The notes under the pieces were generated by a model. It made no database searches, was not told where the DNA came from, and saw nothing but the letters and a program-made list of their open reading frames with translations. A DNA stretch of 64,000 nt from Raillietiella orientalis. Its lineage: Eukaryota. Below are positions 1 to 60,229 of the stretch, piece by piece (position 1 is the stretch's first letter; each line of letters begins with the position of its first letter). The position numbers were made by a program, and so were the translations under genes. The stretch lies in assembly GCA_036172245.1 (NCBI GenBank), contig JAYWIR010000034.1, positions 682,001 through 746,000 of the forward strand, written 5' to 3'.

Positions 1-389
1 AATCTTGTGAGCTTCTGTGCCTCTGGGAGAGTAAATGCTTCTTGAGTTCTCATGAACCAAAGAAGAACTGAAAGCACCATTTAAAACACCTCCAGAATTT
101 TATTTTTCTGTCAGTTAAGACCGATCAGACTGCAAGTGAGCTGACAAGAGAAAGACAGGGGTGTACAATTTCTTAGTCTTCATTCTTTTGGAAGTGATTA
201 TTTTGTGATTAGGACGGATACTGTACTTGTTGGGCCTCTTCTTTCTAGGTACCTGTTCTCCCACCCAAAAATTGGATTCCCAGTTTTCAGAGATTCTGTT
301 TGCTAATTTGGATAAGCGTGAAAGCAGCATCACTGCTAGCCGGGATGGAAAACTACGAATGAGCAATTCTCAAAGGCGCTGCATCATCT

Positions 390-8051: not shown

Positions 8052-8084
8052 TCCTCTTCCTCCTCCTCCTCCTCCTCTTCCTCC
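8052..8084. repeat. (TCC)n microsatellite
   Basis: tcctcttcctcctcctcctcctcctcttcctcc read directly. Confidence 0.9.
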
Positions 8085-13990: not shown

Positions 13991-14739
13991 TCCAACGTGA
14001 GACGTACGATGAGAGATGCGTGAAACATGCTTTCAGAAACCTCCTAAATCGACTCCTATCCTTGTGAATGGGAATTATAAAGTCCTTGGGCGAATAGCCT
14101 TATTTTCAGCATGAGTGAACCGGCCGGCTTGTTGGACCGGCTTCTTGGACCCACGAGCGCGAGTTAATGGTGGGCACTTTCAAAGCTTCACTTTTGGAGA
14201 GCGGACTTTTGATGGATAAGAGGCGAAGAATGTGCGCCTGTTTCCTTAGAGAAATGTGTTCCAATCACAACCGGTTGTCAAGCATCATAAAGGGCTTCTT
14301 GGTATCCACTGATGAAGGATACCGACCACAGCGACAACCTCAAATGAAGAGCACTTACCCCTAGTGTTCTTTCTAGCGAAAATGAGGGAATGTTTTTCCT
14401 CTTACAGGATGGTTCGAGAAAGACTCAAGTTTTGAGGTGCTATCTTCAAAGGCACCATTCCTTGGGCATTTCAACGTTTCTTTCTGCCGCTGAGTGAGAA
14501 CTTTAGGCGGTTCTTGTTGCGTGGGTGTGGGCGTGCGAGCCAAAGAAAGGAACAGAGACAGTAAGGGAGCGACTCTGAGGGATCGATGCACAGTGGCGTC
14601 CGACTGCATGAAGCTGCTCACGGCACTGGATAGCCCGATAAGAGGAATCCGTCCCAAGTAATAAAAGTGAATTTTATTATTTTATGATGCAATCTTCATA
14701 TTCTTCTCCATCCTACTCAGTTCGTGTTCCCTGAGTATG

Positions 14740-15700
14740 CCAGCGTTTCCAGGCTCCTTGCACTTCCATGTCGGTTGTCACGCTACCCAAAAGCTTGCAG
14801 CTAAATGCTTCCCTCATCTCCACTGAAATTATGCAAATTATCGATGCCCCCATCCATAAAGTTGTCTCGTAGGCAACAAAGAACACAGCAGATTCCATCA
14901 GACTAAACAGGGAGTTTCCTAATAAGAACCTGCCTTGTAAGAAGCGCGCGGCACTCTTCGGGGAGCGCCCTTCGGAGAAATTTGGAAGCGTTCCTTCGGG
15001 TTTCTCGTCAGAGGAGAAAACGAGGAGCGAATCCTTTCCGGGGGGGGGTCCTCTGTAGAAGAAATTCCAGGAGCAGATCCTTTCCGGTATCCCTTCGGAG
15101 AAGAAATGAAGAGAGGCCACCTTTCCAGGTGGCCATTCCGGAAGGAATAAAGAAGGTCCCTTCGGGATTCCCATCCCAGGCACGAGAAGAACGGACCCCT
15201 TCTTCCAGAGACTTGTTTCGCTGCTCCCTTTGGGAAGCGCCGTTCAGAGAAATTTGGAAGCGTCCCTTCGAGGATCCTTCAGAGAAGGAAGCAAGGAGCG
15301 GTTCCCTTTGTGGGTTCCCTCCAGAAAAGAAATTCAGGAGCGGATCCTTTCCCCATGTTCTATTCGGAAAAGAAACGAGGAGTAGCCTCCAACGGAAGAT
15401 TCCTTTGGATAGAATGGGGAAGACGTTCTCTTCAGGGCTCCCTTCGTCTCACGGAGACAACCAGAGCGACAAACCCGACTTTGAGTTCCCAACAAAGCGT
15501 GCTAGGAACGACCTCCTTCTTCTGGAGTCTTTCTGAATTCATAGAATGGCTCCTCCGGGGTCAACCCCCCTAATTTCAGGAATCATGCACACCCTCGGGT
15601 GGCATGGACTGAGTTTAAAGAGCTTCATGAGCCTCCTCGAAGGAGGCTAACGGCTCTTCAGCATTCCCTGAGAACCAAAAGACAGGGAAAAAAAGCTGGA
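14740..15700 (+). pseudogene. Broken copy D of the unidentified gene family (longest repeat block)
   Basis: ORF 14982-15536 contains PSEKEARSGSLCGF/PPEKKFRSGSFPHV repeats; the downstream ggagacaaccag...gcacaccctcgggtggcatgga...ttaaagagc aligns with 13561-13720. Confidence 0.55.
14955..15450 (+). repeat. Degenerate ~42-bp tandem repeat with an internal higher-order duplication
   Basis: Recurrent gaaattc(c)aggagc(a/g)gatcctttcc units; gagcgcccttcggagaaatttggaagcg (~14963) recurs as aagcgccgttcagagaaatttggaagcg (~15235). Confidence 0.75.
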
Positions 15701-18700: not shown

Positions 18701-19563
18701 GACGTCCATCCCCGGAGAAGACACCGAAAACTAGGAACGGATCCATTCGAGCGAAATCCACGGCAGAGCCGATGGCGTCCGTTCGTCCGAACGGACCTGC
18801 TCGTAGGAACTTCGTTCCGAGCAATCTGCGTTGTTAGAACTCATCCGGAGGCTGAGGATTTTGAGCGAAGGAAGGGGGGACCTCAAATTGGGATGCTTGC
18901 GAGCTGAAGGGATGGGTAGCATGCGAGTCTTGACGAAACAGCCGCTGGAGTGGGCGTGACCCACTTTGTGGTTGCAACAGTTTCCGCAGGATAGAGCATG
19001 GCTGGAGATGCCTCGAGACGCAGCAAGAGTGAAATCGATCTTCCTCTCGCATCTCCCAACCTTCCTGAGATCTGTTCTCTACCCGCGAGACACACGGTAC
19101 CTGCCTCAGAGAGAATACCAAACAAGAAAGACTACAAATCAGCCACGTGGAAAGTCTGGAGGAGGAAGGGTCTTTAGGAGAACTTGCAAAGTTACTGTTC
19201 ACAGACAGCTGTTTTATGCAGTTGCCCGGGTTCTCTTCATCGGATGAAGGCTTCCGAAACTTTATCGTGGAGATTCTAGGACCCTAGGTCTTATTTTCCT
19301 TCGTCCTGCTACGGGATACCTGTACCTTCCTGTGCTCCATCTTCTTCCGCGGGTGTCGTTAAGTTCCGTCGATGCCCTTTTGATTCCTTATTGTTAAAAA
19401 TCCTTGATTATTTTTATTAATAGTTTGTTATCATCCTCGCAATTTTCATTTGTGATTGTTTACTAACAGTGAGTGAGGAAAACTTGCACATCACGATGAC
19501 AAGTAGGTCATCAACGCAATCATGAATAAAATTGTCTGATTAAATAAAGCGTAAGCGTAGATG

Positions 19564-20449
19564 TCACTCTAAGTGAAATCTGCGTTTGTGGTTTCGGTGG
19601 GAAACACTGAAAGCAGAGGGATGGCGTAAAGACGAGATTGAAGAACTGGCCAGAGCACACCTGGCCTTTCCGCACCTTATTCCATGGATGGTGATAGCCG
19701 TTTCGAATCTAAAGATCCACGACACAAGCGCAGACATGCAGCTCTCAACTAGCAATGGATGCACGCATACTAATGAAGGACTAGGAAAGAATCCTTGAAA
19801 AATGTATTACATCTCTTAGCCGAGGCGTGATCTCTATAGGCGAAAAGTGTGCCTCCCGGGTGAAATCCTTTAGTTTTCAGCTTCATATGTAGCGGATATG
19901 TAGCGATGGGAAGCATGCAACAACCGGAAACGAACTGGTCTGTGTTACTCTGGAGTCGGCCGAAGGAACAGAGGGCCCTGACCACCTGCGCAAGCGACTT
20001 CGTCAGTTGCTGTTCGCCCAGAATCGCATCGTACGATAGAAACGCCACGTCTTGAAGAACGAACTTTCCGTGACTGAGAAGCTTCGTTTGTGGCCTCTTT
20101 CAGAGATAAATTCAGTCTCTCCCGTCCCTGTTGCGGTTTCTTCCTCCAGGAAAAATTTATGAAACTGGAGGCACCTGAGAAAGAATTGAGACACCACTAG
20201 TTTCCTTAAAGCCGCTGCTGCGAATTCTTCCGAATTCAGATTTCCAGTTGGATTGCGGGACAATTCTGAGCACCATTGCTGGGATCTCGGTGTTGATTTA
20301 CAAACTTTCTTCAATGCAACATCCAAGGTCGAGCAGAGGCGACAACCATCTCTGAACCAAAGTGAGAAAATAAACTTACGCCATCCAGGGGTAGCCACAG
20401 ATCGGAGTTGCTGAAGGCATTTTCGTAGAAGCAACAGCCTCGTGATCAA
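19564..20449 (-). mobile_element. Inactive tyrosine recombinase (DIRS/Ngaro- or Crypton-type) remnant
   Basis: Three frameshifted ORFs in recombinase order: WCSELSRNP..LRCLQFHKFF (core-binding-like), AFLSYDAILGEQQL..MKLKTKGFHPG (box I and KT-like) and ITIHGIRCGKA..LRHPSAFSVSHR (HxxR box). The catalytic Arg and Tyr positions appear substituted. Confidence 0.55.
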
Positions 20450-22780: not shown

Positions 22781-25700
22781 TTAGGTTGGAGACGAAGTTT
22801 GGTAGAATGAATGGCCATTCGAGACCAGCCATTTACTACAAAGATTAGCCACTGCAGCTTGCTGAGTGCTCTGTGCCTCTTGTAAAATCTGGCAAATGTA
22901 ATCAACTGAGTTGCTCCTCATGGCTAACAAATAAGCAGACTTCAATTTTCCACACATTATGTAAGCAGTAATCTTGGACTCGTTGCAAATCAAAGCCATC
23001 AACAGATTTTCCACAATATCAGGCTGAATATGGAGGTATTCATTCTTATCTACTTGTCGACTCTTACCTTGTTAGGCAAAGCAAGAAGTAGCTGAAGGGC
23101 ACTGAGCAACAGTTTATCAATGAAGTCATTCTGGAAACTTCCACTATTTTTGATATAGTCAACCAGAATAAGAATTTCTGCAGATCGGCCTGCATCAACA
23201 AGATGAACACAGATTTGGTGGAAAGCATCAAACCGTTTCAGATGAAGTTCTTGAATTATTCTGGATAACAACTAAGTTCAGTCTCATATAGAATTTCTTC
23301 ATGACTACCTGAAAGTAACATCAAATCCATCATGAATGCTGGGTCCAGAAAGTAGTGCGATGGATGCTGCTCGAATTTGAGTGTCCGTATCCTCAAGGAC
23401 AGTGATTTCTGGTCCTGCTTCTGGAAAGTAGCGGTCCAAATGCTTTTCTAGCATTATCTGCAGATCAATCATGGTGACCATGTGATTGAGTTCCCTCAAA
23501 GAAATATGAAGGTTGTGAGGTCTTTCTTGATGGATAGGTTTGTCCAAAGGATTTTCCCGAATGCAATCCTACAACAAACTACCAATGTGCAATTCTCGAG
23601 TTTACCACCTGTAAGTGTCTGAAAGCTGTTGTCAAATGTATTAATCTCTGGCCACGTTTGATTTCCTGTCTACTCAAAGTGATGCATGTCATTGCAGCCC
23701 TCACCAAATCCTTGCAGAAAAGCTGAATGTAATACAGCGAGTGCCACATTTTCTGCCTGTCCAGAAGTTTACAGCAATGGCGGAGATAGCGCTGAATGTA
23801 CACAAACTTGGTCTTTACAAATGTATTTCAGTTATAAACACTTACCAACCATGCTACCGGCAACTGCTGTTGACCATCTTCCATCACACTCAGCAAATCA
23901 AGCAGCTTCCCTTCTTTCAACATAGGGAGAAACAGAGTGGTACAAAATATATCTGGCTCCACCTGGTGCTTTAACGTATAAAGCAAAGCTTCCCAAATTT
24001 TCTTCTGTCTAAAATAAAATGCCAGAAACTGCGCATGGCTCCCATAGGTCTTTAAGTAAAACAAGCATTCTTCAAAAATAAATGATCCCAAATCTTTGCT
24101 AGCACAGCTAAGTGATACATGGCCACAAGAAAGGCTGGTTAACGAAGACAATTGTTGCATAACAACAGAATAATACGGTGGCTTCAGCTGACTGGTTGTC
24201 TTTCCTTTACTGGTCTCAGGAATGGTAAAGCAACCTGAAGGAAGCACCAGACTCTCAAGAGTATTAAGAATATCAACAAGTAGAACAGAATCGCGTTTCT
24301 GTACTGGGCCCAAGTATTTGAAGGCGTGGGCGAATTTCACTCTTGCAGAAGTAAATTCTCCTGCTTTCAGACAATCCCTTCCCCATAGCGCCCATATTAA
24401 AGAACAGTCTAATCCAGCTTTGGTGGATGTTTCCAGAGCCAAATCCCACAATTCTTCCTTAATTAGTTGATCTCTCAATTTTTCCACATCTTTCCGAAGC
24501 CAGAAGGGCAGTTCTACACCAGGAAGTAAGTGGTGACAATTGGCATTAACCAACAGCTTCAAAATATCACATTTTGTCATTAAAGTATGGCACTTATTCA
24601 CTCCATCCCAGTTATTCTCATCACTATACGTGAGTTCAGCGCTGGCGATGAGCAGTTCGATCATAATGAGAACAACACCAAAATCGATTTCTGTAGACTT
24701 GACGCTGGGCTTCAGAAAAGTGGAAAGTTCACAGCATAAGTCTAATTTGAAAGATGCTGCCGATAGATTATCCAGGCATAAATCAAGAATCGACATGCAC
24801 AGAGAAATGCTAGGTGTATAGTCATAGCTGAATTCTTGTCTCACCAAATGGTTATGATGTTCATCCAATTTGAGCTCCCAGATAATTTTCCTGAAATCGG
24901 GCATCAAGGAACGAATTATCTGCAAATTGGTTCAACTCACCTATGCTCGTCATTACTATTATCCTCTACAGGATTAAATATGCTACCCATTCTGTCTTCA
25001 GAGTCTGTCTTTTCTAAAGATTGGATCAAAGTAAAACATGGATCACAAACTCTGACGGCCAGGGAACCGTAGCTTTTCAGCTGAAATGAGAATCATCCCA
25101 ATGAGAATTCCATGAGAATAACAATCATTCAACACGTGCGGATTACAAATTTGTCTTCATTTTGACACTTGCTTAAAGAAAACAATACTTCGACCATCTA
25201 TAATGTTAAAGATTTGATTTCTTTTAAACAAGCTCCTTTTACAAATCCGATGCAAGTACTTATAAGACACCTGTAAAAGGAAAATAAATGCGGAGAAAAT
25301 TTCAAAGGCTCGCAGGTTACTTGAAATCACGATTAAAAAAGAGTATTTCGACGTTGTAATCCCTAAAAAGAAAGTGCTCTTCAGCATTGCTGTATCATTC
25401 ATAGCACGCGAGATTTGGAAGATATGTTTCCAATCAGTTATAATTTTTACAAAAGGAACTCTCACCCTTGCCGTTGGATGTGATGACTAAAACTAATTAC
25501 GTTTCTGGGAGAAACGGAAGGATGACGTTCGTTTCACCACATAGCAGCCCTGATTGCTAAGTAAACGAGATTCTTATATTATGAAAGAATGAGAATGTTA
25601 GCCCTGGTTTCAACCCCAGAACCCTTATTTGAGTCCACAAAGAATAGCAGTGTGATGCATTGCACAAATCAACTGCAGCGGCCATTGTACATATAAGAGC

Positions 25701-28700: not shown

Positions 28701-31700
28701 CTGTTTGGTATGAACAATTTCTGGGTTCATTTACGAAAAAATCTGCTTGTATATCATAAGACTTCTCGTACAGACATAACGTCACTCACACTGAAGTACA
28801 TTTATGAAACTAAGTAATTATAATCAACATGTTTGTCCTTTAGTTCATTTTCACTTGATTAGTTTGCAATATTATTCTATCTATCGCTTGCATTCCTCTG
28901 AACCTTTAGTTTTAGAAATGACGAAAAGCAGGTTTCTCAGCATACGATATTTCGATGATGGTAGTTTTTTTTATATTAGCTTTTTCACAAAAACTGAATG
29001 AACTTGTAGAGTTCTGGAAAAGTGATTGATTTTACTTTCTTCACATGCTAAGAAATTCTCAATGATATATGTGGTGTGCATGATTTTTATTGTTCATGTA
29101 CTACAGATTTTTGAAGTGAAAAACTCCAAAGAACATGAAACATATTTAATCGATTTCTTTATTTTCGATATTTTATCCCTTTTAATTTTGAAGACAGACT
29201 TTAAGAGAGAATTGCAGAAGAGAAATGAAAATCACAGACAATGTGGAAAAGTCCATCAATTTTCTAATTGAACTAGTGAATGCTACCTCATAATCTCTTC
29301 AATAACTTATAATACTTACCTGGGCACGTTTCGACGAACAATGATTACAAACTACTCTACCACACCTTCGACAATGATGTCTTCTGGTGAACATAGAGAA
29401 TTCTTCTATTCGACAAACCATGCAAAGTTTTGCCTAAGTAAAGTATATATTTAGCAAATATCCTATTACGTAAAAAATCTTACTTTAAAATCAGGAACCC
29501 AAGCTTTTTTTTCACATCCCCTTGGGGAAGCAGTAGCACTGGGTTCCTCTGAAGAACTATTCCAAGCATCCACAAGATCTGTTACAGGTTCACTTTCACT
29601 AAGACGGGAACCACGATTTAAAGTGCGAATTTCCAATGCTTTGCGGGCATATGAATGGATCAATGCATCAATTTCTGGCTGGAGATTGCTCTTGTAAGTT
29701 AACTCTTTCAGGCTCGCTTCAAAGATCTTCAGTTTTACATTCATCAATAACTGTTCCAATAACAATAATGGAGATTTGGTTAGAATCATATAGCAATGTC
29801 TTTCTTCTGCGGGAATATGCTGTAGAAAACTCAAACCAAAATGCCATAATTCAAATTCTCTGCGCTTTGTTTGTAACTCCATTTTCCATGGACGATTCAA
29901 CATGCTTTCTGATATTTTCAGTTGTACTGCATAGTTGGAGATGCGTTCCATCACATGCTCACACACAAGCAAAGCATTATTCATATCAATACTATTTAAA
30001 GCCTTAAGAAAAAAATTATTGTTACATCAGTAATCAAGTATATAAACATCAAAAAATTCCTTAGACATCTAAAAATGCTAAAATACTTGCGAGAGAAAGC
30101 ATTTCACATCATAAGCATAACAATATAAAAAAAAAAATGCTTTTGAAATAATAATACAAATAATGAATACTTGAAATATATGGGCAGAAAATATAACAAG
30201 AACGAGAAAAAATTGTAGTTTATGATGGCTACATTCGATTCACACAAGTCTAGTCTATCCTCATACAGACATAGAGGAGACAACATGAAGGATATGTCAA
30301 TCAATTGAAGTTCCTAGTTTACACGGGTGCATTACTTTAGTGCACTATTTTAGTGAAAACATTGTAGCTTCAAAGTTGTAATACTAAAAATACGTTAGTT
30401 AGTTGTTGAATATTAAATCATAATTATTAATATTTTTCGAGCACTTTGGCTATGGCTGTTTCAAAATTTCTCCATTCAAAGTGAGACTTGACATTTATAG
30501 AATCTTTGGGCACTGAAACAAATTATATTTTTATTCGAACAGGATTTTATGGTCTACTGAAATGGAATTCCTTAGTACTATTAAATATGGACCCTGAGAT
30601 CGCTCTGCTAAACAACATATGGTTGACCATCAGTCTGTGCAAGGATTGTAGTGGGAACAGGTACATAATTGAAATCCGGATGACTCGTGATAAAGGCTTT
30701 GGCAAACGAGTTCAAGTACATGCTGCTGAGTTTTACCCCCTTAGAATGGGTTTAAAACGACTAAATAAATACTACATGGCATTATAAAGTTCTACTTCTG
30801 AGAACAATAGATAGAATCTATGCAAAGGTTGATGGAAAACATTTTCATGGTAAAAAGGGAATTGCATTGAAATTTCGTAGTAAAAAGACAATCCTTACAA
30901 AACGAAAAAGTAAGGAAAAAAAAAGGCGTATCCACAAATGTGGAAAATGATTTCGGGAATGTTAAAGCTGAGCATGAGGTAAAAACTTGGGAAAGTGTGC
31001 TTGAAGAATTTAGGTGATTAGCAGCTCAAAATTAACTAGCACATATTTCAAGATGGAGAGTGAATGAAGTATACAATTCATTTCAATTATAACACAGCTG
31101 ACCACTGGTAAGCACAGATTAAAACTCATTAACAATATCAGACTGGACTAAAAATTGAGAGGAACTTACAAGACCACAGATAAGAATTCAAAACATAAGA
31201 TTAGTATTATGCAAACAATGAAAATGCATGTCAATAAAGAGATCATAAGCATTCATTAAGCATGCATCAATTATTGCACAACTTTCGAGCTTACATAAGT
31301 GTTGTCTTGTATTCACACAAGAATAACTCTTTTAAGGTCATTACTGAAACTGAGACCTTTGACTTTGTAGGCCTATTTTTTTTCAGGAAAATTGCCTGCA
31401 CTGTTTTAATAAAGTTTAAATAGAATAACTTTTCAATAAGAATTCTTTTTTCTTTCAATTACTTTTCAAAATACCAATTCATTCAAATTCAATCTCAGAA
31501 TAACTACAACCTATCAAAACATTACCAAGATTTCTGGAACTGCAAAATTCCACACAAAATGCATAATCTACCAAATGCCACCACAGTTACTGGTTGTTTA
31601 CAAAACTAAACTACAGAATTTGATAATATACTCAAATGGGTTAGAATTTATTACACACTTTCACATAATTACATTCCTCCCAATTATATAAAAATCTACG

Positions 31701-34700
31701 AAAATGCTATCAGAATCTCATTGATTTCAACAATAATTTATGGTAACGTAACGTATTCACATAACTACAAACCGAAGCAACAAATCTGGGATAGTAAAAC
31801 TTGGAAACGAGGAAAAACCCATAATAGTAACATTACCTTGAGTGCCCGCTTAAGATCTGGAATGTTTGTGTCCAACAGAGACATTAAGTAACTTTCATGA
31901 ACTAAAAGCTGAAGCGATGATGGCAAAGAATGTATTCTTCCCCATCTGAGAATTAAATCAAACTATGTGATTGTTGATGCATACGTTATTCAAAAACTAA
32001 AAATTACCTGTCTGCACTCATTCAGAGAGGTAATAACAGTCAATGGTTTTGAGACAGACAAAGCTTCCACTTCTTGCCACTGAAGAGCAGTTCCAAGCTG
32101 CACAATCTGGAAATAAGTACAACAGTTCCAACACTACTGAGAATTTGAGTGATTATTGCCTCCTGATAAATTTGTAATTTCTCTCGCAACTCCTTCAAAG
32201 ACTCAATGAGGGCCTTGGGCAAAAAATTCTTCTCAGCCAATAAATGGCACATTTGCACATAATTGATAGCATCTTCAGCTTGAAATTTACTAACGTTGTG
32301 TAGTACACACTCACAGATCAAGGGCAAATTGTGCAATGCAATATTTCTGTTAGGAATATTACCTAAATTGAAGCATGAAATGTTTTTTGCCAAATGTATA
32401 TCGTTGTTACCTGATGAAATGATGTGGCATGCTAGTAAATCAAAAACATGAAACAACTGCGCATTTCTAGCAACTGGATGTTCACAAATATCCAAGATGA
32501 CATCAAAGGCTGCTGTGAAATTTTCATTTATAAGCTTCGTTAAAGCTGTCCACAAGGTAAACTGATCAGCCAGCATTGCTACAAGAATGTTTTCAGTTCT
32601 CAAGAGAGAGCACAGACTTTTGCCATAACTTGTCTGTGAAATCTCATCAAATGGGAACAGTGGTACATTGAAATCGATGCACTTCTTTATAAATACAGCC
32701 AAAAGTTCACATTCTTCTGATAAATACTGATACAACGCTATTGGGGCTTCTCTCTCGACTGGAATTGATGCTGGTTTGAACTGTTGATTTTCCTGCGCTG
32801 ACTCATAATGAGCGTAGTCCAAGTTAATAAAAAATGGGGAATCAATAACATCAAAAAGTGATTTCACAGCTAAAAAGAAAAATAAAGGTAAGCACCCGTA
32901 TCAAATTTGAAGTAGCAGAAAATATTAAGAACTAGATAAGAATATTTCCAACCATAACTGAAATCTTTGAAATTTGGCAGGGAGAATATATAGCCAAAAC
33001 ACCACCATACATATAAGAAAAAACTAAGGAAATCACGAGCTAATGACATCCTATTTCAGATTGTGAATAACATACAACTGAACAAGATTAATTGATACCT
33101 TGCATGTGCTTCAAATTTTGTAAAATACGAAAAATCAGAGATACATTCAAAAGGCATCAAGCAACAATAGTTTTAAAAATTTTTTAATCAAACTCACTGA
33201 TCAAATGAAGAATCTTTATTGAAACTTTAAAATCGTCTATGGACCTTGTATACATTGCTAACTACCCACACATATGCTTAGCAATATAAGGCATACACAT
33301 CAAGCAGCACAGAACAATATATGGAAAGGATTATACTTATAAGAAACCAGTAAACATATCAATGGCCTTGATCAGAAGTTTGAAGCTTAATTCATTTATA
33401 CTAATTGGATAACTGGCTTTGTAATTGCATCAACTCCACAAAACTAGTCCATGACATTAAATGAATGAAACAAGCTTGAGACAAAATGTAAATGAGTATC
33501 ACAAAAAAGCCTATTAAGTATCCATTTTTCAATATAATGACATAAATATATCAAATTCTGGCATAAATAATAATTACTGAGAAAAAAACAATGATTATCT
33601 TTAAAATTTTAAGACCTTGATGTACCCTACTCAAAAATGGCATTAGATAGCTACCAAAGTCTACAGCTAATTCAGAAGATTCCAGAAGATGATGGTCAGT
33701 AATCATTGTCATGATAATACTGCTATCCATATGTTGTAATATTGGTGGCACAAAAATTGTGCTTTTTTGCTTATCTATGTGAATGTGAGTCCTCAAGTAC
33801 TCTTCCTGGGCTTCATCAAGTTGTTGTTGCAACTCCAAAGGATTGAAAACCTAACGAAATTAATAAGATATTTGCATATGGTAATAAAAAAATAAATACC
33901 CGTAATTTAGGACAACCATAGGCAGCACCCCAAACAGCAAACACATATTTTAAAAAGTTAGTTTGATTTGGTAGCAAATTATCTGGTAACATTGACCAGT
34001 TGGGCAATAAGTTTTGCAAGGATACAGGTAAGGCGTATCGAAGACCAAGAATTCTGTATTTAGCATCAAATAATGTAACAAGACCGATTTGGCCAATCCT
34101 CAATGCAATGCAACGTTCAGACATCATTTGATATAAAGTACAGGAAGACCATAGTCCACTTTTTCCTTGAGAAGCCCAGTTTAATGCACCACAAACACTT
34201 AAAAGATTAGTAACATTTAACCAAAACGCAGTGACTTCAGATTCATCAGCAAGAAGTTCAATATCAGCTTGTGCTAACTGATTCCAACTCCTGACAATAG
34301 CAATAATTTTCTTATAGAGAACTGTATGATGATAAATGCTCTGATGTCCGCCTTGGGTTTGCAATAAAAACTGATGAGCACTGATGAGCAAGTCTCTCAC
34401 CAATAATTCAGGATGCTTTGTGATTTCACAACTCAAATAAGATGTTTTCTGAAATAGGAATTTTTTGATTTAGATATTGACCAAGATGCTACTTTAATAG
34501 AACTTTGGAATAAAAACATCCCAAATTTCTTTTGGAAAAACATTCTAAAGAATTACATGCAAAGCAATAACATTAAAAAATCTCTGAAAAATGAATGAAA
34601 CGCAGTTTTTAAATAACAGTGCTTCTTGAATTCTCAATTAACTTCTTAATAATTTCTTATAGTATTAATAGTACTAATAATGATGATGATGATACAACAA

Positions 34701-47885: not shown

Positions 47886-50800
47886 AGTGTTACTGTAATT
47901 TGTATAACATACTGATATAGAATTTTGAATTGTCATGCCCATGGATGTTTAATGCATGTGATTGATTAGGAAGATCCTCAAGATCTGCTCTTATAGTTCC
48001 ATAAATTGGGAATAATGCATTAGCTTTAATTGAATTATCAAAAAATGTGCCACTATGGCTATTTATACAAATACTACTGGCTACCTATATATATGAAAAA
48101 GAATTTCGCGGAAATTCAACTCGTAAGTGCATACAGGATAAGAGTAATAAATAATGTGTAATTAAAGAAGAAAATGCATAATCAGGAACGTACATCTATC
48201 TCAAGTATTGAGTACATACAAAGAAAAACTTCGTCTTACCAATGTAACCAATTGTTTACAGTGTACAGTGCACATCCGGCTTGTAACTTGAAACAAATGC
48301 ACTCCAAACCGATATCAAGTTGAAGATCTAGTATTTCAAAATGAGAATGGAAACGTAATTATGGCTAGAATTCTCGTTTGATAAAACTAATAGTAGCATA
48401 CGGAATTTTGGAAGGACTCTACTTGAAAGGGTAAATGAATTGTAGAAAATAATCCCCTTACGGAGGGAACTCAGATCGAGTTCTAAACGTTCATATGTAT
48501 GCAAAACTACCTCAACTACTTGCTAACTTACAAGTATTCTTTCCGTTTCTCTTGTAATGTTTCTGAACACCTTTTTAGAACACAAAATGAAGTCAGAAAT
48601 GTAACTGGTCATGGCAGGTATTAGACAACAATTTACACGACTCTGAACAAGATTTTCATTGTTTTATCAAATCAATGGCAAGTATAGCAACATTGAGCTG
48701 CTTTTAACATTTGTGAAGTTGTCATTTCTGAGACATATCAGTTTTTTTTGGTAACCCATGTGATATCAGATGAGTTAGTTGAGTATTGTAAACGCTCTTC
48801 ACGGTGTGCTTTCTGAATCTTCGAAACGTATCATACTCCTCATTTGTAGAATCTGTTGTTTGCACACAGCAATGTTTGCCAATTAGAAAATGCTTATTCA
48901 CAGAATGACATATAAGTATAGGAAAGTTTTCATTAATAGTTTTCTGAGCATTTGTGAAATTAGTTTTTTCCTTGTTCTGTGATATTATTTGAGGGCATTT
49001 CTTATTCTAGAGATATCGATATTAGTCACATTTCTAAATATATTACGGAACAACATCAGTTTGTCTGCATGTAGTCACGATGACGGCATATTAATCTTGT
49101 ATCTAGAAGAAAATATATTGAGCACATTTAAAGGAAAAATTTAGCATTTTGCATCTAAAAATAAGAGTTTGTTAGGGATTGTTTAAAAAAACTCGTAGTC
49201 ATAGTTTTCCAATAGACGCAAAAGTGTATTTTGAATGAAAAAAGAAAATTGGAAATTAAAATGAGATGATTAATGACGTTTTTATGTTGCTGTCATAAGG
49301 ATAATTAAGGCATTTGAAGTTTTACAAATGGAAGGAGTTCATGATTAAGCACATGTATTCCCTCAGCCTTTTTTTTGGCTACTTTGAGGTACCTACATTT
49401 ACAATAAAAGGAAAATGGATTCATTTTCCTTGGAAATTTAAGCGTCTCTAAGGCTAGCTGAATGAAGGTTTCGAAAGTCACAGTCCATTTCTAGAAATTT
49501 TGAACCTCGTTCGGTAAAATTTCTTATGATTCTATATGAAAATGACCTAAAGAATGCGCATCCTTTTTTTGTATTTATATTAACTATTTGTTTTTCAATC
49601 CTTTTTTTATGTACATATATTTGAATATCGACTTTCTCTGTTTCTTGATCTTATTTCGTTTCTGGAGTTTGATAGTGTCTTTCAAAGTTTTGCATGTGCT
49701 ACTTCTGTGTACGCACAATTGGAAACTTGCGTATAAAGGAATTTTATAATACTTAAAACTTATTCGTTTCAAAGCAGAAACGAAGTGCATTAATGGGTAA
49801 TAGTTTTCTTCTTAACAAAGGAAGGGGAATTAATAAGGGGTAATTTGTCTATGGGAGAAGCAGTGTATCTCTAAGACAAATGAATCTCAAAACTGATGAT
49901 GTAATGGGCAAGATGATAGAAGTGAATTGAGAAAACTGGAAGACGAGATTTTTAATTAATCAGGAGAGCTGTTCGTGTATGCAGAAAGACATGTATTTTT
50001 ATGAATGAAGGGCTTTTTACCAATTCGTGTCAGCAATCAACAGTAGTTGCCATAATTTCTGTAGCAGGAAGGAATTTTCTGTAGCATTTGTATTAGCACT
50101 GCACTTCACACCCAGTAAAATGGGCAGCTATGAAGTTTATGCTTTGTATCTCATGTACTGTTTTTTTGTTTCTCGTTTTTCGGCACAGAGATTGATCAAG
50201 AATGAGATAAAATGAAAATTTTTGTTGCCACATGTTACTATGTTCCTAATTTTGTGTTTTTTTAAGTTTTCTGAGACCAACCATTAAATAATCCTTACAT
50301 TTCTTTGGAAAGCATTGAGAAGGAAATCACCTTATTGCCACCAAAATTCTGTATGTGGCTAAGAAGGGTGGTTTGCATAAATGACTCATGATTATAAGAT
50401 TGTTGACAATTCAATGTCATTTATAAGATTTATTATACCTAATCATTGAGTTTCAAGTTATAACAGCAGTGATTTTAGAAGTTGCATTGGTATTTAACCG
50501 AAGAAGTATGATCCTATTTAGATTCGTTCACTTAGGACTAGTTCATGATTGGCTATGCTATTGACTTTCTAGCTTTTTTGCCTGTGACATTTTTGGAAAT
50601 GGTAAACTATCCTATCCAACAACATAACATGTATTTTACATTTAATGAAGGTGCATGGGGAAAAAATGTATTGACTAAACAGACAAAGCAACAAATCTTT
50701 CATGAATTCGAACTTTAAAATTTTCGAAGGTACAAGCACTCGAATGCTGCTTTCTGTGTTTGATTCTTGCATAACACATGTATATTCTTTTGCAAGCAAA

Positions 50801-51062: not shown

Positions 51063-52220
51063 TTAGTCCAGTTCCAGATCGTAATCCATGGTTAACAACG
51101 GATTTGTTTTACTTCGACAGATTGGACAACTGGAATTATGCTTCAGCCATCGTTTGATGCACTTGGAGTGATATTTGTGGCGACATTGCAGGCTACAAAC
51201 CACTTCATTCCTCTCAAATGCATCCATGCAAATCGCACATTCAGGATCACTTTGTATGTCAATCTCGTCAATAACACTAGTAGGTAAAGCGTCAAGCTGT
51301 TCTTTCGTCAAATTATGTGGTCCAAGGAGATTTACAAGAATTCTTTCACGAAGTATAAACAAGTTATGAAGAATGTTAGCAGCATCTGAAGAACTGTCCA
51401 TTGTATATAATCTTCTTCCATTCATTATGTAGTTCCCCGTGTAGTTCGTGAAAGGTATCAAAAACGAATTCATCATTGTTTGCAGGAAATTTCGTGACTG
51501 ATCAGTGTTTAGTAGTTGTCGGAAAGCACGGACCAAAGAAATCAGCAGAAAATTCGTTGGAGAAATTTCTAGTGATGTGATTTCTACAGATGTCGTTCCA
51601 AGGGCCATATCACTCATTCTAGTAACAATAGTTTCAGAAAAGTCATTTACAGAATTGGAAAGCTGTGCAAAAGCAATATGGTTGGCAGGGGCATTCATAG
51701 TTCTCCACAAACCAGGTGTTTGACTTGAGATACCTCTTTCTGAATACAGAAAGATATTGTTGAAAAGGTCTTCAAGAGCGCTTCGAAGCACTTCCCGGTT
51801 CATTTCTCCACTGACAGAAGTGTATCCTGTTAGCATTCGATAAGTTGCTGAATCTTCGGAAGTTTCAGGTACTGAATTTTCAGCCGGAAATATGAGTCTT
51901 GAGAAGAACTTTATGGGACAAGCCAGAAATCTCTTTGTTTTGCGCACTAAGGAATCCATTGATTTCTTCTTGTTTCGGGCTGCTGAAGAGACAATTGGCG
52001 TAGTTCTTTCTCTATCTTGAACTGTTTTGGCTTTAATTTTTTTTTTTGGTCTTTCTTGAACTGCTGGATGTAGAGTCCTTAGATTAAAATTTCTGATTTC
52101 TTTTTTGTGAATCTCGCATGTCTGGTTTGAAGGAATTTGTAGATTTCCAGAGCAAGTTGGAGCAGAACATTGATTTAGTTTTGCAAGTTTCAGAGGATTT
52201 CTGCATTTGTGGGGAGTCAT
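51063..52220 (-). CDS. Intronless RING-H2 E3 ubiquitin ligase (RNF115/RNF126-like C-terminus, divergent N-terminus)
   Basis: Single open frame with first ATG at 52220 (385 aa). C-terminus LTKEQLDALP..ECAICMDAFERNEVVCSLQCRHKYHSKCIKRWLKHNSSCPICR is a complete C3H2C3 RING. Confidence 0.88.
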   Translation of the reverse strand: MTPHKCRNPLKLAKLNQCSAPTCSGNLQIPSNQTCEIHKKEIRNFNLRTLHPAVQERPKKKIKAKTVQDRERTTPIVSSAARNKKKSMDSLVRKTKRFLACPIKFFSRLIFPAENSVPETSEDSATYRMLTGYTSVSGEMNREVLRSALEDLFNNIFLYSERGISSQTPGLWRTMNAPANHIAFAQLSNSVNDFSETIVTRMSDMALGTTSVEITSLEISPTNFLLISLVRAFRQLLNTDQSRNFLQTMMNSFLIPFTNYTGNYIMNGRRLYTMDSSSDAANILHNLFILRERILVNLLGPHNLTKEQLDALPTSVIDEIDIQSDPECAICMDAFERNEVVCSLQCRHKYHSKCIKRWLKHNSSCPICRSKTNPLLTMDYDLELD

Positions 52221-53636
52221 CAACAAGTTGACCAAGAAAGGAGAAGTCAAGAAGGATTTGAAGATGAGAATCAGAAGAAAAAAGAGTTTCACGAAAGCAG
52301 TGAAAGATATCAATCTCAGCTCCTTGAGTTGTCAGGGATACCTAGTTTTGTCGAGCTTGAAGTTTTTTTCTTTCTGAATTCCAAACTTGTATAAGTAGTT
52401 TCGTGAAGTTTTTGGATGTTATTTGGAAAAACAGTTCTACAAAGCTGGGAATGGAATACATCGATGGAATATATCGATTATTCTCAGATGTTATTAAACA
52501 TAGAAAATGCACTAATGAAAGCTTATATCGATTCGAATTCTTCATAACGGCATATATCGAATATGAAATGCGATGGCATTTATTCTTGAAATTTTTGTTA
52601 GTGTTTCCTCAAATGAGCTCACATAGTTTATATTTCATTTTATTGTATCGAGAAAATTTCAACAGTTTCCTTTTAAAATCAAAGTGTCATCAAAAGTGAT
52701 CATATTCGTTTTATTCGTTGTTATTGAATTATTATATGATTATATTGAATTTCTCAATATATAATTAAGTATTAATATATCTGCTTATGCAATGTAAATT
52801 TCACGTGAGGATAGACCCTATTCCATGAATATCAAAATAGAAATTGCCTAGGATTTTACTGAGAGCTCACATAAAATTTTATAGGCTGCCAACTGTACTC
52901 TTCTGTCATCTTCCAATTTTGCTGCAGGTGACCACTGGAATTTCCAGTCTTCCTAATATGAAGTGTTTAAAATTATTTTAGCTAACAGAAATATCTTAAG
53001 TACTGACTGGTTACATTTGTAATTTCTGTTACTTCATAACTTGCATGAAGCTAATATGATTTCTTTTTTATCATAACATACTATTTCATAAAACTGTTGC
53101 ATCATCATATGATTAACGTACAGTTATATCTTTTTGAGTTTGCGATGAAGCAGCACTATGATGTAATAAGATCTGTACTAGCAAAATACATGATTTTTGT
53201 TTCCATGGGTATAAACAGAACAATAAGGAGTTGCTGCACCGATGCCTAAGGATGTCATAAATAAAGATGTAACTGAGATTATATCAAGTGACTTGTCATC
53301 ATTACGTGAACTGCAGAATCGAATTGGGAAATTCTCAGAATGATGCTCGTAAAGCAAATTCAACAATAGTGAAAGATCTCCAATAATAATCACTACAGAA
53401 GTTTTCAAACACAGTAAGGAATATATATCTTTTTATTTATTCTTTTTCCAAGCTTATGAATCTACGTAAAGTATTTCTGCAACAACCTGTTGGCAATGAA
53501 AACTCAAATTTTCTTTAAAATGTGGCTAGCTGAATTTTGAGAAAGCGTCCATTGAAGATAACTCAGAACCGTGCATTTATGATTTTTCTCTTGGTTATCC
53601 GGTTTTATGCACATGGTTTCTTTTTTTCCTCTAAAG

Positions 53637-53692
53637 ATTGCATTAGAAATTGCATTTAGAAAATGCATTAGAAAATCTAATTAGAAATTTGC
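53637..53692. repeat. ~12-bp imperfect tandem repeat (TGCATTAGAAAW, about 4 copies)
   Basis: attgcattagaaattgcatttagaaaatgcattagaaaatctaattagaaatttgc read directly. Confidence 0.8.
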
Positions 53693-54828
53693 AAAAAATA
53701 ACGGTGACTATTGTTTCTCAAATCCCTGAGTAGTTGCCCTCAGAAACTAGAAATATTCCAGGTCCATTTAAGAAAAGCACTCTTTCTGTGGAAATGTAAA
53801 AATAAGAATGGGTCTATTCTGTAGTCATTATGAATTTCTTGAATCAAAAAGAAACAGTAAGAAATTCAGAAATTTTCACAGATACTTATATTTAGCTATA
53901 TTACGCAATCTTTTAAAACTTTTCCGAGATGCTTGCGATGACTTCGTTTTTGTAAACGAAAAACAAGCAAAATAACATCAGAACAACGGGTGCTGTCTCA
54001 CGAAAGCTAAGCTATCGAAAATATTGCAAATTGCAGTATTACAGTTTCTAAGTATTTTAAAACATAACAGAATTACTACTTTATGTAAGTTCGGAAACTG
54101 AGACGAGCAGAAATTTCTTAAGGAAGATGATGCATTTTAATTATCAACAAACACGTCAAACCTGCTCTTTTTTACTTTCATTGGTCAACAAACAGTAAAC
54201 CATTATGCAGAAATATGCACAGATACATTTTTTTTAGAAGGCAATCTGATGGAGTTTTGTTGCTTCGGCGTTTCATAAAGTTTTTAATTCCTGTTTCTTG
54301 TGCAAAAATTCCAATTTTCAATTTGTTGAGGATACCCAGTTTTGAACACTGTAAACAATGAGATCATTTGAACTTTTTTCTACTGATACTCTAATTTTCA
54401 AGTTCATGAGTGACTGCTTGACTTATCACTGTGCCTAAGAACCGTAATAGAATGAACTGTTTTTTTCTTGACCGTTCTTTGTAAATTGAAAAGATGTTAG
54501 GTTCTAAGGATTTCGTTAGTTACAGCGTTGAACTTCATCAAAAGTAGCCCATCCTATAACAGAATGCGCTTCACTCTGAAGTGCCGTATTTCATTCGGAG
54601 TAGCGTATGATCCTCTATTTCAGTGTCCTCCTTCCTGGGAGATTACACATGTAAAACATGTAAACATATGAGTGTGCTTCTTACATTTACGGCGTTCCTC
54701 AATGAGGGAAAATTTCTTTAGGTAAACAACGTAAACCTCGCCTTCTTTCCACGTCACAATCATTCTAGTCGAATCAAGCTAAAGATAACTAAAGATGAGG
54801 ATGAACACCAACATCAGACATCACCCCT

Positions 54829-54886
54829 GTCAAATCGCTGATAATAAGTATTATCGGCGATTTGACTTTAAAAAAAAAAAAAAAAA
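54829..54886. repeat. 18-bp-stem hairpin followed by an A17 tract
   Basis: GTCAAATCGCTGATAATA-AG-TATTATCGGCGATTTGAC (one T.G pair), then TTT and A17. Confidence 0.9.
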
Positions 54887-55248
54887 TGTTTCATTGAAAG
54901 GAAATAGGTGATTCTAGGTATGGTAATGCAATAAAACAAGAAATGCAAGAAACATTAATATGTAATAGATGGTGTTTTGCATGTATGGATTTATGAACAG
55001 ATCTTGCTCGTGGGTTTCTTATGCAGCCCTTATTCAGTGGCAACAGTCTTCCTAATTCTGTAGAAAGCCTTGGTGTTAACGTAAGAGTATCTGGTAAGTG
55101 AGTTCAGCGTTTCACAATGTATTTTGAATGAATTCATCTTCAATTCGTAAATTTTGTTTTCCATTGTTCGTACACGTTTATCATTAATTCGGATTCAAAT
55201 TTTCACGACCTTGACGTTTGGCACAATCTAATGAAGGTCAAAAAGAGA

Positions 55249-55393
55249 GGAGTACCTGGAGCATGTCTTCGTTATGATCTTGAAATTGCATTAGAGGATG
55301 TACTTAAAGGAATACATGCATTATGTGACAAATGTAAAATGTGATACATGTCGACGCACAGGTAGCGAAGGAGCAATAAGACCAGTTCAGTGC
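55249..55393 (+). pseudogene. dnaJ: Bacterial (Wolbachia-like) dnaJ internal fragment, frameshifted
   Basis: Frame A reads GVPGACLRYDLEIALEDVLKGIH; after a frameshift at ~55318, frame B reads [25 protein letters not shown]. This matches the bacterial DnaJ [18 protein letters not shown] motif plus the first CxxCxGxG zinc repeat, and closely follows Wolbachia DnaJ as I recall it (not searched). Confidence 0.82.
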
Positions 55394-58247
55394 TCTTTCG
55401 AAGTCCTTCCTTCGTTTCTTTCCGTTTTCTCAAGTTCACTAGTTTTTATGAACACAAGTTTTCTCACCATCGTTCAAAATGTCTCAATACAAAACGGCTG
55501 TAAAACCATGTTGCACTGTCAACAGTAATTTACTACGTTGAGCTCTTCCAAAAGCCTTAAATTTGGGCGTATGGTAATGAGAATCGGCAAATGAATAGTT
55601 TTGATTCTACTGTTGCAGTTTTCAAGAAAGTATCTATAACGTTGACTGAATCAGCAAAGTCAGCCCAGCAGTATGTGGCAATTATTTTACCAAAACTAAA
55701 CGTCAGTTGCTCCTTTGCAAATGGAAATCGCGCGCATCACACGCAGCAGCAGATTTTTGGGATGCTTAGGGATTCGCAAACGCATCCTCCCTCGATCTGG
55801 AAATTGGCGGCAGCATTCTTTGGAGAATTCATCCTGCATACGGGCAACTCGAAATGAAAAACGGTTCGTTCGCGCAGTTTGCTCGTCTTCCAGCCGTCAA
55901 TCCAGTTCCACTGAATGAACACCATGCATTCCTCCTAGGAAAATGGAAACATCACAATTCTTAGTGGGAAAACTTTTCCAGTGGAGGTGGATTTCCGTGT
56001 ATCTGTGGATTATTCATACTGAAACCTACTTTTGTGGAGAAGCTTGAACGTTTGAGTTCTCAAGTTGGTTTACTGTTAATATTAATTTTTCTAATACCAT
56101 CTGAATTTCTCTTTGAATTATTTGAACTTTCCAAGTTAATATGATCCCGTTGAACTCCCCTTCTAACTCCAAAACATGAAAAAAATTTCCAGGTCCCTAA
56201 TGCAGAACCAGGAAGAAGGAGACCGTTGCTCGTTCTTCGTTCAATTACGACGTCAGGTCTCCATTAGATTCGGTGAATGGTTACACAGTTTTCATCGGAG
56301 TAAACGATCCAAGTAGTAAGAATCCGTGTATTATTTGACGTTCGTACTCTAAATAAATGGAGAATATGCTTTTTCAAGTCTTTGTAATCCCAAATAATTG
56401 TTTTCCCGTTCCTCAATGGATTGTCTTTCTGACTTTAGAGAGAATACTCATCGCTTTAGGATTACTTCGCTCATATTTAGTGAAATTTTAGACTTGCAAC
56501 AGAAATGGAGGCTCGCATTGAACAACGACATTGCCAAAGCTGAAATTCTCAATCAGAATTGCACTTTTGCGTTTCCGTGGCTGAACGATACGAACTGCCT
56601 ACCAGTAGTAGTATGTACTTTCCTGAAATTCATTAGGTATTTCTGGGAACATTAACCACACCCGCTGCAACATTCGCCTTTCCTCCTCATTCCTACTCTT
56701 TCAAGAGCTGCCTTACCACCTATAACGATTTTATCTACCTCCTTCGGTTGATTTATGATCACAGACTCAGAGTTTTCATTCGTAATAGCCTTTCGCACGA
56801 CAAACTCAAATCACACAAATTTTTCTTAAATGGAGTTTTCTTAATACTCGCAGAAAATGTTGAAAGGCACGCAAGGTGCAAAAATTGAGAACTATTACTC
56901 CAACTTTTAAGTGAATAACTCGATAATGCAAATGCTGCCAATAGATTGAATAGCATGAGCATCAACACCGTAATACTCTGTAGTTCGGGTATCAATTATC
57001 ATCACAGTGTCCGCTGCCTGATTGGAATTCATAAAAGACCTTCGGTTTTAAAATCCCGAACCTCACAAGAACTGAAGGTGCTAAATACACTTAATGGCTG
57101 TGCAAATGCTTCCAACATATCTTAAACAGGATACATGCAAAGTTCAAACTTTCGAGATATTACAAGCCAACTACCAGAACGAGTTTGCAAAGCACAGCTA
57201 GAAGGTGTAGGTGAAAATATTTCTTCAGTGGAGAATATGTATGGTTCATAAAGGTTTCACCATGGATGTACCCAAAACCCATGAAACTCTTGAAATATTA
57301 ATAAGGAATGCAGTATCCAATCGAACCTGTGTTTTGAATTTAGTGTTGAACAAATTTATTTATTCCTTTTGAATCATTTAAATGCTACAATGTGCTGTTC
57401 TTCACAGTTTTTGTATTCACTTAATGTTCAGGTATTAAGGAAAATGTGAGTGCTGTACCATGTGTGATGGCATAAATAATTTCCATACATCCTTGGTAAG
57501 TATCAGTCATTTTATTTTCACAAAAGAGCATTTAACAAAAAAAATGAGATACATTAGACAGAATTAAAAGAACAGTTTGGGGCAGCTATGAAATAAACTT
57601 TTGAGATCTTTTAAAGTACACTGGAAATGCAGAACTACTTTGAATATCAATCAGCTAAATGATGTAGGTGAAGACCATCATAAATAAAAATTACATTGTT
57701 CTAAGCAGACCTTACAATCGGGATTCAAACTGTAATGGCACAATCAATACAAACCACAACCATTTCTGATTGCATATTTTCCAAAATCATTAAATTAATG
57801 CAAAACTGATTCCAAGGGAGCCAACAAAAAGGAATAAAAGGCATGAGAATCAAAACATCCATTAAAACAGTGATTGCAGTGCTTCAACATTAATTATACA
57901 TCACCAAGAATTCCTTAAAGAATAAGGATATATGAAATTAAATTACTGAATATGTAAATAGAATGCAGTTTCTTACAGCATGCAAAAATGCTGAGAAGGC
58001 TCACAAAAGGGAATACAGGTAATGCAAGCATGAACAGGACACCCATATTTTCAAATTTTCTCAACCATCAAACTTGGAAATTAAATAAAAAATCATATTC
58101 AGTTTTAATACTAGATACTTCAAACATCTTGTAAGCAATATTGTCATATTTGAAGAAATGTGATGTGCACAGTCCCCAGAAAATAATGTGCACTTTTACA
58201 CATAAAAAAATCGTTGTAAATATATCTAAAAACAGCATTCAAAATAT

Positions 58248-60229
58248 CTAAATACGTATTTCCTTATGAAATTTCTCTAGTTTTTTCTGGCTAATTTGTT
58301 CCTGGAAAACACTCATGAAAAGCATCCACGGCACTCTTAAAGCCTACCAGCTCATTCATCACAGGCCAGCTGAGTGCATCCTTCACTACTTGCAAAGCTT
58401 CTGCTTTTTTGTTCAGTGCTACAAGGCATAAAGCAATATAAATAGTGTTTTCTTTCCAAGGCTTGGAATTCAGGTGTTCAGCATCCCTGAAGTGTTCTAA
58501 GGATTCTTCAACAGAAGGAATAGGAAAGGAATCCAAGAATGTCAAAAACACTTTCTGCTGAATCCAAGACAACTGTGACACCTTTCATGAAATGGTTAGT
58601 TCACTACAAGATCAAATAATGCTCACATTATAACAGAGGCATCCTAGAAGGTGATGCAAAATGGGAATACATGGATTCAATTCCAATGCAATATCTAGAT
58701 GTTTTTTAAAATTAACCACATCGTGCATTCTTTTTGCAATATTCTGTGAAGCAGCTCGATAACCATGTGTAACAGAACACCAAGTGTGTGCCATTGGTGA
58801 CTGTGGATCACTTTGTACACTTTGTATAGCATAATTGACAGCTGAATAATGCTTTCAATCATCACAAGATAAAAATTTCCAAAAGCACCTATTCCATTAT
58901 AGCTGTCTCTGTCGATGAGTTGACCAGCACTCTCACTAAATTGTGCCAGCAAATGATAAGATCGAGCAAGGCGCCATAAGAATTCTGAATTATGACCATA
59001 CTACATATAAAAGAATTACATTCCAATTCATTGTTTTCAAAGATTTTAAAAACAGAGCGATTTACAATTTAAATACATTGCATTCAACCAGAACTAATAA
59101 ATTAAATGCAAGATTCAATATTTTAAAGAAATGGCACTATGAAACATGTAATTTTTAACTCAACACCTTAAGAGTTAAAAATTAATGAAAACAATATACC
59201 TCAAGTGTAAACTACGGTATTTAATTGATCAGAAAAATCACAATGCATCTACATCAGTACAGTATTGTCAAAAGCTACCAAGCTTTTCTAGCCTTTGACA
59301 GAGTGAGCATCAATTGCAAAATTGCAAATCCACGTTTCTTTCCTTGTTTATTTTTACTAATAATACATAATAACCAATTCAAACAGAAGTCACTAATTCT
59401 ATGGCAGCAACTTCAATAGGATTCGTATAACAGTATTTTATTATTCGAATTTTTAACACCATTGATAACTAACACATATTTTGCAGAAAACTTTGAATCA
59501 ACTGACTAGCTACTTCAACTGTTACAAAAGTTAAAGATATTACACTAAGTCATTATCTATTTATAACTCGACAATATATTTAATCAAAACTACAAGAAAG
59601 CATTCACATTGTTTAATTTTGGGGAAGCATTACTAACTTGGGCAATAGCGTCCTTGAGAATACAAATGGCATTTTCCTGATCTGCAGTTGAACCATTTGC
59701 AAGTCCATCTACTTCTTCAAGGAGCTGAAAATGCAGTGACTGATCCTTGCACTTACTTTCTTTTAAACTCAAAACAGATGTTACATTTTCCACACTGCAG
59801 GAAAAGAAAACTATCTAGGTAACTGCATTATCTTTCAGTCGTTGTCATGATGGTACTATTCAATTTTCATTTTACACAGTTCAAATGCGCTTGCAATATT
59901 AACTCACACGTAACATGAAATTTTAAATTACAATTACCACTCAGTGTTTTCCACACAATCGAAAAATTCTTCTAGGCTCGTGGACGTGCTCGCTTGACTT
60001 AATGAGGAATGCAAAATTTGATCTCTCGTTAATGACTTAACGTTAGCACACTTTCCTACATCTTTTTTTTGTGTCCCTACAAGAAACAGCATTCTATGGA
60101 AATGTGAACCGATCTACCTTGAAGAATTTTCAATTGAATGTACAGCCATAATGCGCTGGCCCCTACTACCATTCCAGTGATAAATGTTGTGCAGACAATT
60201 AATCCAGTTTTAAAACCATACGGCATCAT
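58248..60229 (-). CDS. Regulator of microtubule dynamics (RMDN/FAM82) family protein with an N-terminal transmembrane segment (RMDN2/3-like architecture)
   Basis: Exons 60229-60118, 60076-~59940, 59794-59638, 59000-58889, 58841-58627, 58581-58348, 58301-58248, all GT-AG. Motifs: hydrophobic LIVCTTFITGMVVGASALWLYI, EEFFDC (FFAT-like), EFLWRLARSY, AHTWCSV, FKKHLDIALELNP, LHHLLGCLCYNVSQLSWIQ and KPWKENTIYIA. Confidence 0.88.

Follow-up and report, generated by a model that had tools for sequence, protein, structure and literature searches.

The stretch of DNA analysed here (the window, 64,000 nucleotides) carries, on its plus strand at 55248..55393, a decayed 146-nt fragment of Wolbachia dnaJ, that is, a nuclear Wolbachia transfer (nuwt), which blastn aligns with a single 8-nt gap. 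The reading preferred here, and held with good confidence, is that of a non-functional nuclear copy in a pentastomid whose lineage would have passed through one or more germline infections, the bacterial DNA being captured in the course of break repair. New here, being unmatched for Wolbachia in the literature searched, are the host group and the dense patchworks formed by other Wolbachia pieces in this genome.

Identity of the dnaJ fragment

The fragment reaches from the last part of the G/F region to shortly beyond the first CxxC, the part of bacterial DnaJ before and into the zinc finger to which a preliminary description had assigned it, and the two peptides reported there in overlapping plus-strand frames are present as described. 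The 8-nt gap, which accounts for the change of frame from one peptide to the other, falls within 55309..55321 (+) in the alignments, the exact position being ambiguous by a few bases. This gap recurs against all 12 aligned Wolbachia-clade dnaJ genes and corresponds to the deletion of about 8 nt proposed earlier. No J-domain, start or continuation was found in the neighbouring window DNA, again as had been stated. A functional DnaJ chaperone was considered and rejected, as the piece is 146 nt long, frameshifted and limited to one CxxC, without a J-domain, four CxxC motifs and a C-terminal domain in one frame. It has no function.

With the whole window as blastn query, wPsylliodes matches the fragment in 125/154 columns at E 2.6e-35, which excludes a chance match. 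Across 55248-55393, 12 Wolbachia-clade loci give E values of 2.6e-35 to 3e-21; other bacterial loci align over 44 nt only. Matches occur in 58 of 60 Wolbachia-genus genomes, the best three agreeing in 129 of 154 columns, which becomes 129/146 bases once the gap is left out. The two peptides agree with Wolbachia-clade DnaJ at a median of 37/46 positions (n=52 rows, some of them grouped by rank only; range 9-38), with Mesenet DnaJ at 30/46 and with the remaining 92 bacterial rows at 23/46 or fewer. The Wolbachia origin claimed at the outset is borne out by these comparisons, in which other bacteria fall far behind and the best matches are to Wolbachia, not to eukaryotes or to bacteria outside the Rickettsiales. 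A tree of Wolbachia sequences only, with no outside outgroup, places the fragment within the genus. Searches of a phage collection and of Rfam with the window gave no match.

The two peptides alone score E 0.11 and 0.17 against the NCBIfam DnaJ model and have no match in Pfam, which would suit a remnant of host DnaJ (mitochondrial Tid1/DNAJA3) or a chance resemblance. This explanation is refuted by the Wolbachia matches in the blastn, 60-genome and peptide comparisons, with nucleotide identity to Wolbachia at 86-88%, and its probability is negligible. The other DnaJ-like loci of the genome match Wolbachia DnaJ at only 30-42% outside the J-domain; the fragment is therefore not a host Tid1 remnant.

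Genomic surroundings

The left neighbour of the fragment is a host RING-H2 finger ORF (51063..52331, minus strand; Pfam zf-RING_2, E 2e-14) and the right neighbour a host RMDN exon (58291..58584, minus strand; Pfam RMD1-3, E 1e-7). A ZFYVE26-like host exon at 23828..24931 (minus strand), with 33% identity to spider ZFYVE26 over 93% of the query (E 2e-40, one spider match only), identifies the contig as animal DNA. The fragment lies about 680 kb inside this contig (C34), which is at least 2 Mb long and carries the RING, RMDN and ZFYVE26 genes, and the surrounding 5 kb are single-copy. At the level of the assembly, the fragment thus appears embedded in host nuclear sequence. The 8-nt gap, the private changes discussed below and the host-gene neighbours in the assembly contig uphold the earlier view of an old, decayed nuclear copy as opposed to contamination. 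The GC content of the window shows a sharp step, from 50-60% over 1-20000 to about 31% over 25000-64000.

The preliminary description had also placed the fragment in intergenic DNA between eukaryotic genes. The eukaryotic neighbours stand; the intergenic position is less certain, as a candidate, phase-compatible GT-AG intron at 55094..55618 (+), read from the sequence, brackets the piece. Its donor at 55094 is one of three donor-like motifs on the plus strand of 52.4-57.5 kb, and the frames flanking it have no credible homolog in Pfam, in an Atlas search (scores <0.9) or among representative proteins. The search for a host gene around the fragment thus gave no credible candidate, the single representative match being an artefact produced by summing repeats of a giant Ig-repeat protein. 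The region 52900-57300 as a whole is single-copy and has exon-like open frames, few splice motifs and no homolog; it is possibly a fast-evolving or dead host gene. No convincing terminal repeats or target-site duplication were seen at the fragment.

The suspicion that 53-57 kb hides further fragments was not substantiated. In 52.6-57.6 kb, blastn comparison with 12 genomes yielded no other Wolbachia DNA (best other match 31 nt, E 0.001), and a tblastx comparison with 12 loci and 1.2 Mb of wPsylliodes revealed no more pieces beside the dnaJ fragment; additional pieces lie at 30365-30736 and genome-wide. The former (30365..30736, plus strand) is a second, more decayed nuwt, which matches wPsylliodes at 71% over 388 columns (E 3e-42) and has matches in 6 of 7 genomes. 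In translation it is the start of a nuclease gene, with stops and frameshifts, whose product, named from the aligned protein, we take to be an Rpn-type PD-(D/E)XK nuclease. It sits between minus-strand ORFs at 29466-30026 and 32040-32900, probably inside a ZFYVE26 intron. A possible third Wolbachia piece, weak, is found at 48145..48212 on the minus strand (77% over 68 nt, E 3e-4, 1 of 5 genomes).

Other copies and decay

A search of the host assembly (210 Mb, 491 contigs) yields at least four dnaJ pieces, three of which overlap and differ by 16-27%, and so represent separate captures. The copy on contig C5 retains the 8 nt absent from the window and shows zero private changes over 99 nt. Among its best 80 of 295 confirmed loci in bacterial genomes, the top 12 share 68-85% amino-acid identity with it and the rest at most 60%; these 12 are 11 Wolbachia records and one Rickettsiales metagenome-assembled genome that clusters with them.

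The window fragment is truncated at both ends and bears nine changes present in none of the 12 references, distributed 4:2:3 over the codon positions. Several affect invariant residues, with non-synonymous changes at sites that are invariant in the 12 references. The corresponding ratio for the dnaJ copy on contig C55 is 9:13:8. Among long nuwt pieces (n=29), 10 have stops or frameshifts and 19 are undisrupted. Errors of assembly may account for single-base indels in the pieces; one such indel also separates the two mitochondrial contigs. As a separate observation, private changes show a strong bias toward A/T to G/C (22 versus 1 in L099:1501-2015, 5 versus 1 in the window fragment), which is unusual for decaying DNA and may reflect GC-biased conversion or the choice of sites.

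Wolbachia DNA across the genome

When 20 kb of an A-like and 20 kb of an F Wolbachia genome, both picked for holding dnaJ and therefore sharing it, are compared with the assembly, they match at least 35 places (5.0 kb) and at least 22 places (5.6 kb), respectively, these counts being lower bounds. Identities range from 68 to 97%. A rough extrapolation gives about 1,200-2,500 pieces that cover about a quarter of a Wolbachia genome. The dnaJ fragment shares its contig with L160 (C34:2038218-2041595, running on to about 2042160), a collinear insert, F-like and at least 3.4 kb long, which lies 1.3 Mb away and has a broken coxA and an internal deletion of about 310 bp. Neither a full bacterial 16S nor a whole Wolbachia dnaJ was found in the assembly. 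Bacterial contigs are often removed from assemblies before deposit, so the missing 16S does not show that the infection was lost.

Thirty loci were fetched and 22 kept, the window's own locus and seven overlapping or duplicate ones being dropped. Two or more Wolbachia pieces occur in 16 of the 22; the pieces number 87, have a median length of 87 bp and form patchworks of up to about 14. They are gene fragments (18/87 are intergenic or mixed) in mixed orientation, drawn from scattered positions of the Wolbachia source and scattered in a complete F genome too. At 48 of 65 junctions the pieces lie within 30 nt of each other. The donor sites of 44 of these 48 close junctions are more than 10 kb apart, with a median of 359 kb and a uniform spread (KS p=0.25), as measured with best-scoring matches only on 1.2 of 1.44 Mb of an A-type reference, Wolbachia genomes being rearranged. 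Overlaps of at least 2 nt were observed at a frequency of 0.29, versus 0.27 in simulated blunt joining and 0.71 in simulated joining with 2-nt microhomology. The joins fit blunt ligation, as in end-joining. The mosaic features of non-homologous end joining (NHEJ), namely non-contiguous abutting pieces in either orientation with little microhomology, are found in 16 of the 22 loci; the window fragment is solitary. In the loci compared with a 3-4 kb mitochondrial reference there was no mixed mitochondrial-Wolbachia patchwork, and the mitochondrial matches in the window and nuwt loci were shared repeats only. The literature searched, which covered few subscription journals, yielded no description of nuwts in patchwork form.

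One or a few large Wolbachia inserts might instead have been shattered and rejoined after insertion. Such a course would accommodate the multi-kb collinear insert and locus L113, in which three neighbouring donor pieces are still in order. It is quite unlikely, however, in view of the dense patchworks, which hold no interleaved host DNA (L101, on contig C56, is almost wholly Wolbachia over 3.4 kb), of the uniform donor distances and of the spread of patchworks over many contigs.

It is extremely doubtful that the patchworks are products of a retroelement reverse transcriptase that switched from one Wolbachia RNA fragment to another. Private changes rich in A>G and T>C would agree with that mechanism, as would ORFs in the GC-rich first 20 kb of the window that resemble non-LTR retroelement remains and have no match in Pfam. 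Against it, adjacent pieces have the same coding sense in 9/30 pairs (p=0.04 versus 50:50; 15/37, p=0.32, with gaps of up to 150 nt), which argues against copying from mRNA. The intergenic or mixed pieces point the same way, as does the failure to find any piece of 16S, rRNA being what would make up most of an RNA pool; nor does the window fragment show an evident target-site duplication. The departure to 9/30 is not predicted by random ligation.

Head-to-tail short pieces in mixed orientation are typical of ligation or amplification chimeras. The patchworks look like this, their junctions are known from assembly contigs alone, and private changes are missing over 99 nt of the C5 dnaJ piece; all would follow if DNA of live Wolbachia present in the worm itself or in its prey had been joined chimerically to host contigs in library preparation or assembly. 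Such an artefact is nevertheless hardly credible given identities that extend down to 68%, the divergence among overlapping dnaJ copies, private changes at all codon positions (the C55 copy), the lack of a whole 16S or dnaJ in the assembly and the depth of the fragment within its contig. It is further opposed by an eight-piece patchwork that recurs with the same joins in three places, L115, L116 and L117 (one on contig C80, two on C29), in 3-kb segments 98.9-99.9% identical. These three may be a recent duplication or haplotype copies.

Donor strains

Supergroup F is closest, at up to 96%, in six of the eight loci compared (L101, L002, L105, L106, L160 and L099); L113 has mixed affinity and L103 is equidistant. 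The F labels were assigned by clustering with wCle and wCfeF and also lean on what we take to be the known supergroup assignments of these genomes. The window fragment leans toward a supergroup-A-like donor, as judged from its bases: its best genomes carry a DnaJ 97-99% identical to that of wMel, and its diagnostic sites divide as 8 A-type to 1 F-type, or 5:1 outside CpG. The A-like states could derive in part from CpG decay, and the AU test does not reject placement with F (p=0.08). Since the fragment leans A-like, there was probably more than one infection.

Inside the 3.4-kb patchwork L101 (630-768, contig C56) lies a 139-nt piece of bioF (NCBIfam, E 2e-9). It maps beside bioB, at 92% and 91%, in two F-like genomes, the only ones among 14 to have an intact bioB; it reaches 75% in wOo and has no match in the A genome or the other F genome tested. 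Very few Wolbachia are described as having the biotin operon, on which the symbiosis with bed bugs centres (10.1101/2022.09.06.506778). At C70:194266-194676 and C31:2108943-2109080 there are two weak stretches that resemble bioB and contain stops; they were not counted, lipA also matching the bioB model. The Paracimex Wolbachia genome apparently has two copies of the operon (C1 609904-611558 and 996942-998567), one with a broken bioB, and the bioF piece is nearer the broken-bioB copy (91% versus 78%).

The host and its mitochondrion

The best matches of the mitochondrial COI are Armillifer (77/76%) and Linguatula (75%), with beetles at 74% or less. The COI tree, which includes no branchiuran and in which a long branch was flagged, places it as sister to Armillifer plus Linguatula (100/99). 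The gene order is cox1-trnL2-cox2-trnD-atp8, without trnK; ARAGORN was noisy at lowered threshold, and only trnL2 and trnD, both also read from the sequence, were kept. A shift of trnK away from its place between cox2 and trnD is common to pentastomids, branchiurans and some other crustaceans (accessible text of PMC1590035; PMC10355681). On these mitochondrial data the host is very likely a pentastomid that belongs to neither Armillifer nor Linguatula. Of 12 loci with COI-like copies on large contigs, 11 are nearest to the mitochondrial COI described here and one is Wolbachia coxA; the nuclear copies (NUMTs) therefore tie the mitochondrion to the nuclear contigs. An 18S-like locus lies on contig C360. 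On the mitochondrial contig (C282, L154:1740-2330), cox1 and cox2 are separated by a non-coding stretch of about 450 nt together with an incomplete second trnL2, a duplication also seen in old NUMTs.

There are 54 COX1 matches genome-wide, including three multi-kb NUMTs at about 80% clustered on contig C33, and this number suggests that the germline takes up cytoplasmic DNA readily. The literature searched, mostly outside the subscription journals, yielded no report of Wolbachia or nuwts in pentastomids.

Proposed origin and significance

Under the preferred reading, Wolbachia would have inhabited the germline of the tongue-worm lineage. Dying bacteria would have released DNA, cut into pieces of about 50-500 bp. 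These would have been joined to one another end to end, whatever their orientation, and taken up where chromosomes had broken, by the same non-homologous end joining that captures organelle DNA, after which they would have decayed. The window fragment would be a solitary capture from a donor that may be supergroup-A-like, and infections would probably have been repeated. If the host uses insects, the bacteria may have entered through a cockroach intermediate host with supergroup F; cephalobaenid larvae are described as developing in cockroach fat body (PMC12130985), and German cockroaches as carrying supergroup F (PMC10118093).

The same two reports, along with the likelihood of more than one donor type, also favour a worm that was never infected and whose larvae, growing in Wolbachia-carrying insects, took up bacterial DNA from insect tissue. 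This is very unlikely. At least 1,000 heritable inserts, patchworks of up to about 14 pieces and a multi-kb collinear insert need abundant bacterial DNA in germ cells, and inserts from the insect's other bacteria would be expected too. The germline infection proposed above can be extended to a tentative and rather unlikely scenario, in which a supergroup-F Wolbachia with a biotin operon, acquired from insect intermediate hosts, is or was a vitamin-supplying partner of tongue worms like that of bed bugs and was joined or replaced by other strains, these infections being recorded in the germline as thousands of shuffled patchworks from which much of the partner's genome might be read and dated. 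Pentastomids, crustaceans that parasitize vertebrate lungs, are blood feeders, and the nutritional role is a speculation from this habit and the one bioF piece.

The dnaJ piece itself is inert and is a marker of an unreported symbiosis. If the reading is true, Pentastomida join the animal groups with a Wolbachia history. An F-type donor and the bioF piece raise the question of whether a bacterial partner is needed and whether there is an antibiotic response as in filariae. The patchworks would show a route of symbiont DNA into the germline and offer numerous dated samples of a strain that has been lost or has escaped sampling. Wolbachia PCR screens in tongue worms may amplify nuclear fossils, and the broken coxA of L160 could mislead coxA typing.

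Comparison with known systems

On the features tested, the window fragment is a nuwt and is closest to the Wolbachia fossils of Dictyocaulus viviparus (PMC4046930). These too are short, disabled fragments co-assembled with host DNA, at about 84% identity and from a clade-F-like donor, in a vertebrate lung parasite in which no live infection was seen. That host is a nematode, whereas the present one is pancrustacean, and the accessible text of that account mentions no head-to-tail patchworks of sub-100-bp pieces. The Dictyocaulus inserts were confirmed by read pairs and PCR; those of the tongue worm are known from the assembly alone (PMC4046930).

Filarial nematodes likewise preserve several supergroups in one genome as a record of successive infections, and F has been proposed as a hit-and-run donor among them (10.1101/2025.03.17.643741). 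The filarial maximum is 818 matches in 653 regions under a stricter cut-off, compared with the 1,200-2,500 pieces extrapolated here by methods that are not directly comparable, and the accessible text uses neither 'mosaic' nor 'adjacent' (10.1101/2025.03.17.643741). The joining of non-contiguous pieces of about 100-250 bp at repaired breaks has its counterpart in the mosaic organelle-DNA inserts made by NHEJ in Toxoplasma (PMC10245829, citing plant work), which differ in having an organelle as donor where the donor here is an endosymbiont.

The F Wolbachia of bed bugs and Rhodnius offers a further comparison, with an F donor, the rare biotin operon, a blood-feeding host and transfers of up to 350 kb into host genomes (10.1101/2022.09.06.506778). 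In those insects a living bacterium carries an intact operon, in contrast to the tongue worm with its bioF piece of 139 nt and two bioB-like stretches, both weak and broken. Strains without a nutritional role have the operon as well, according to the accessible text of that study (10.1101/2022.09.06.506778).
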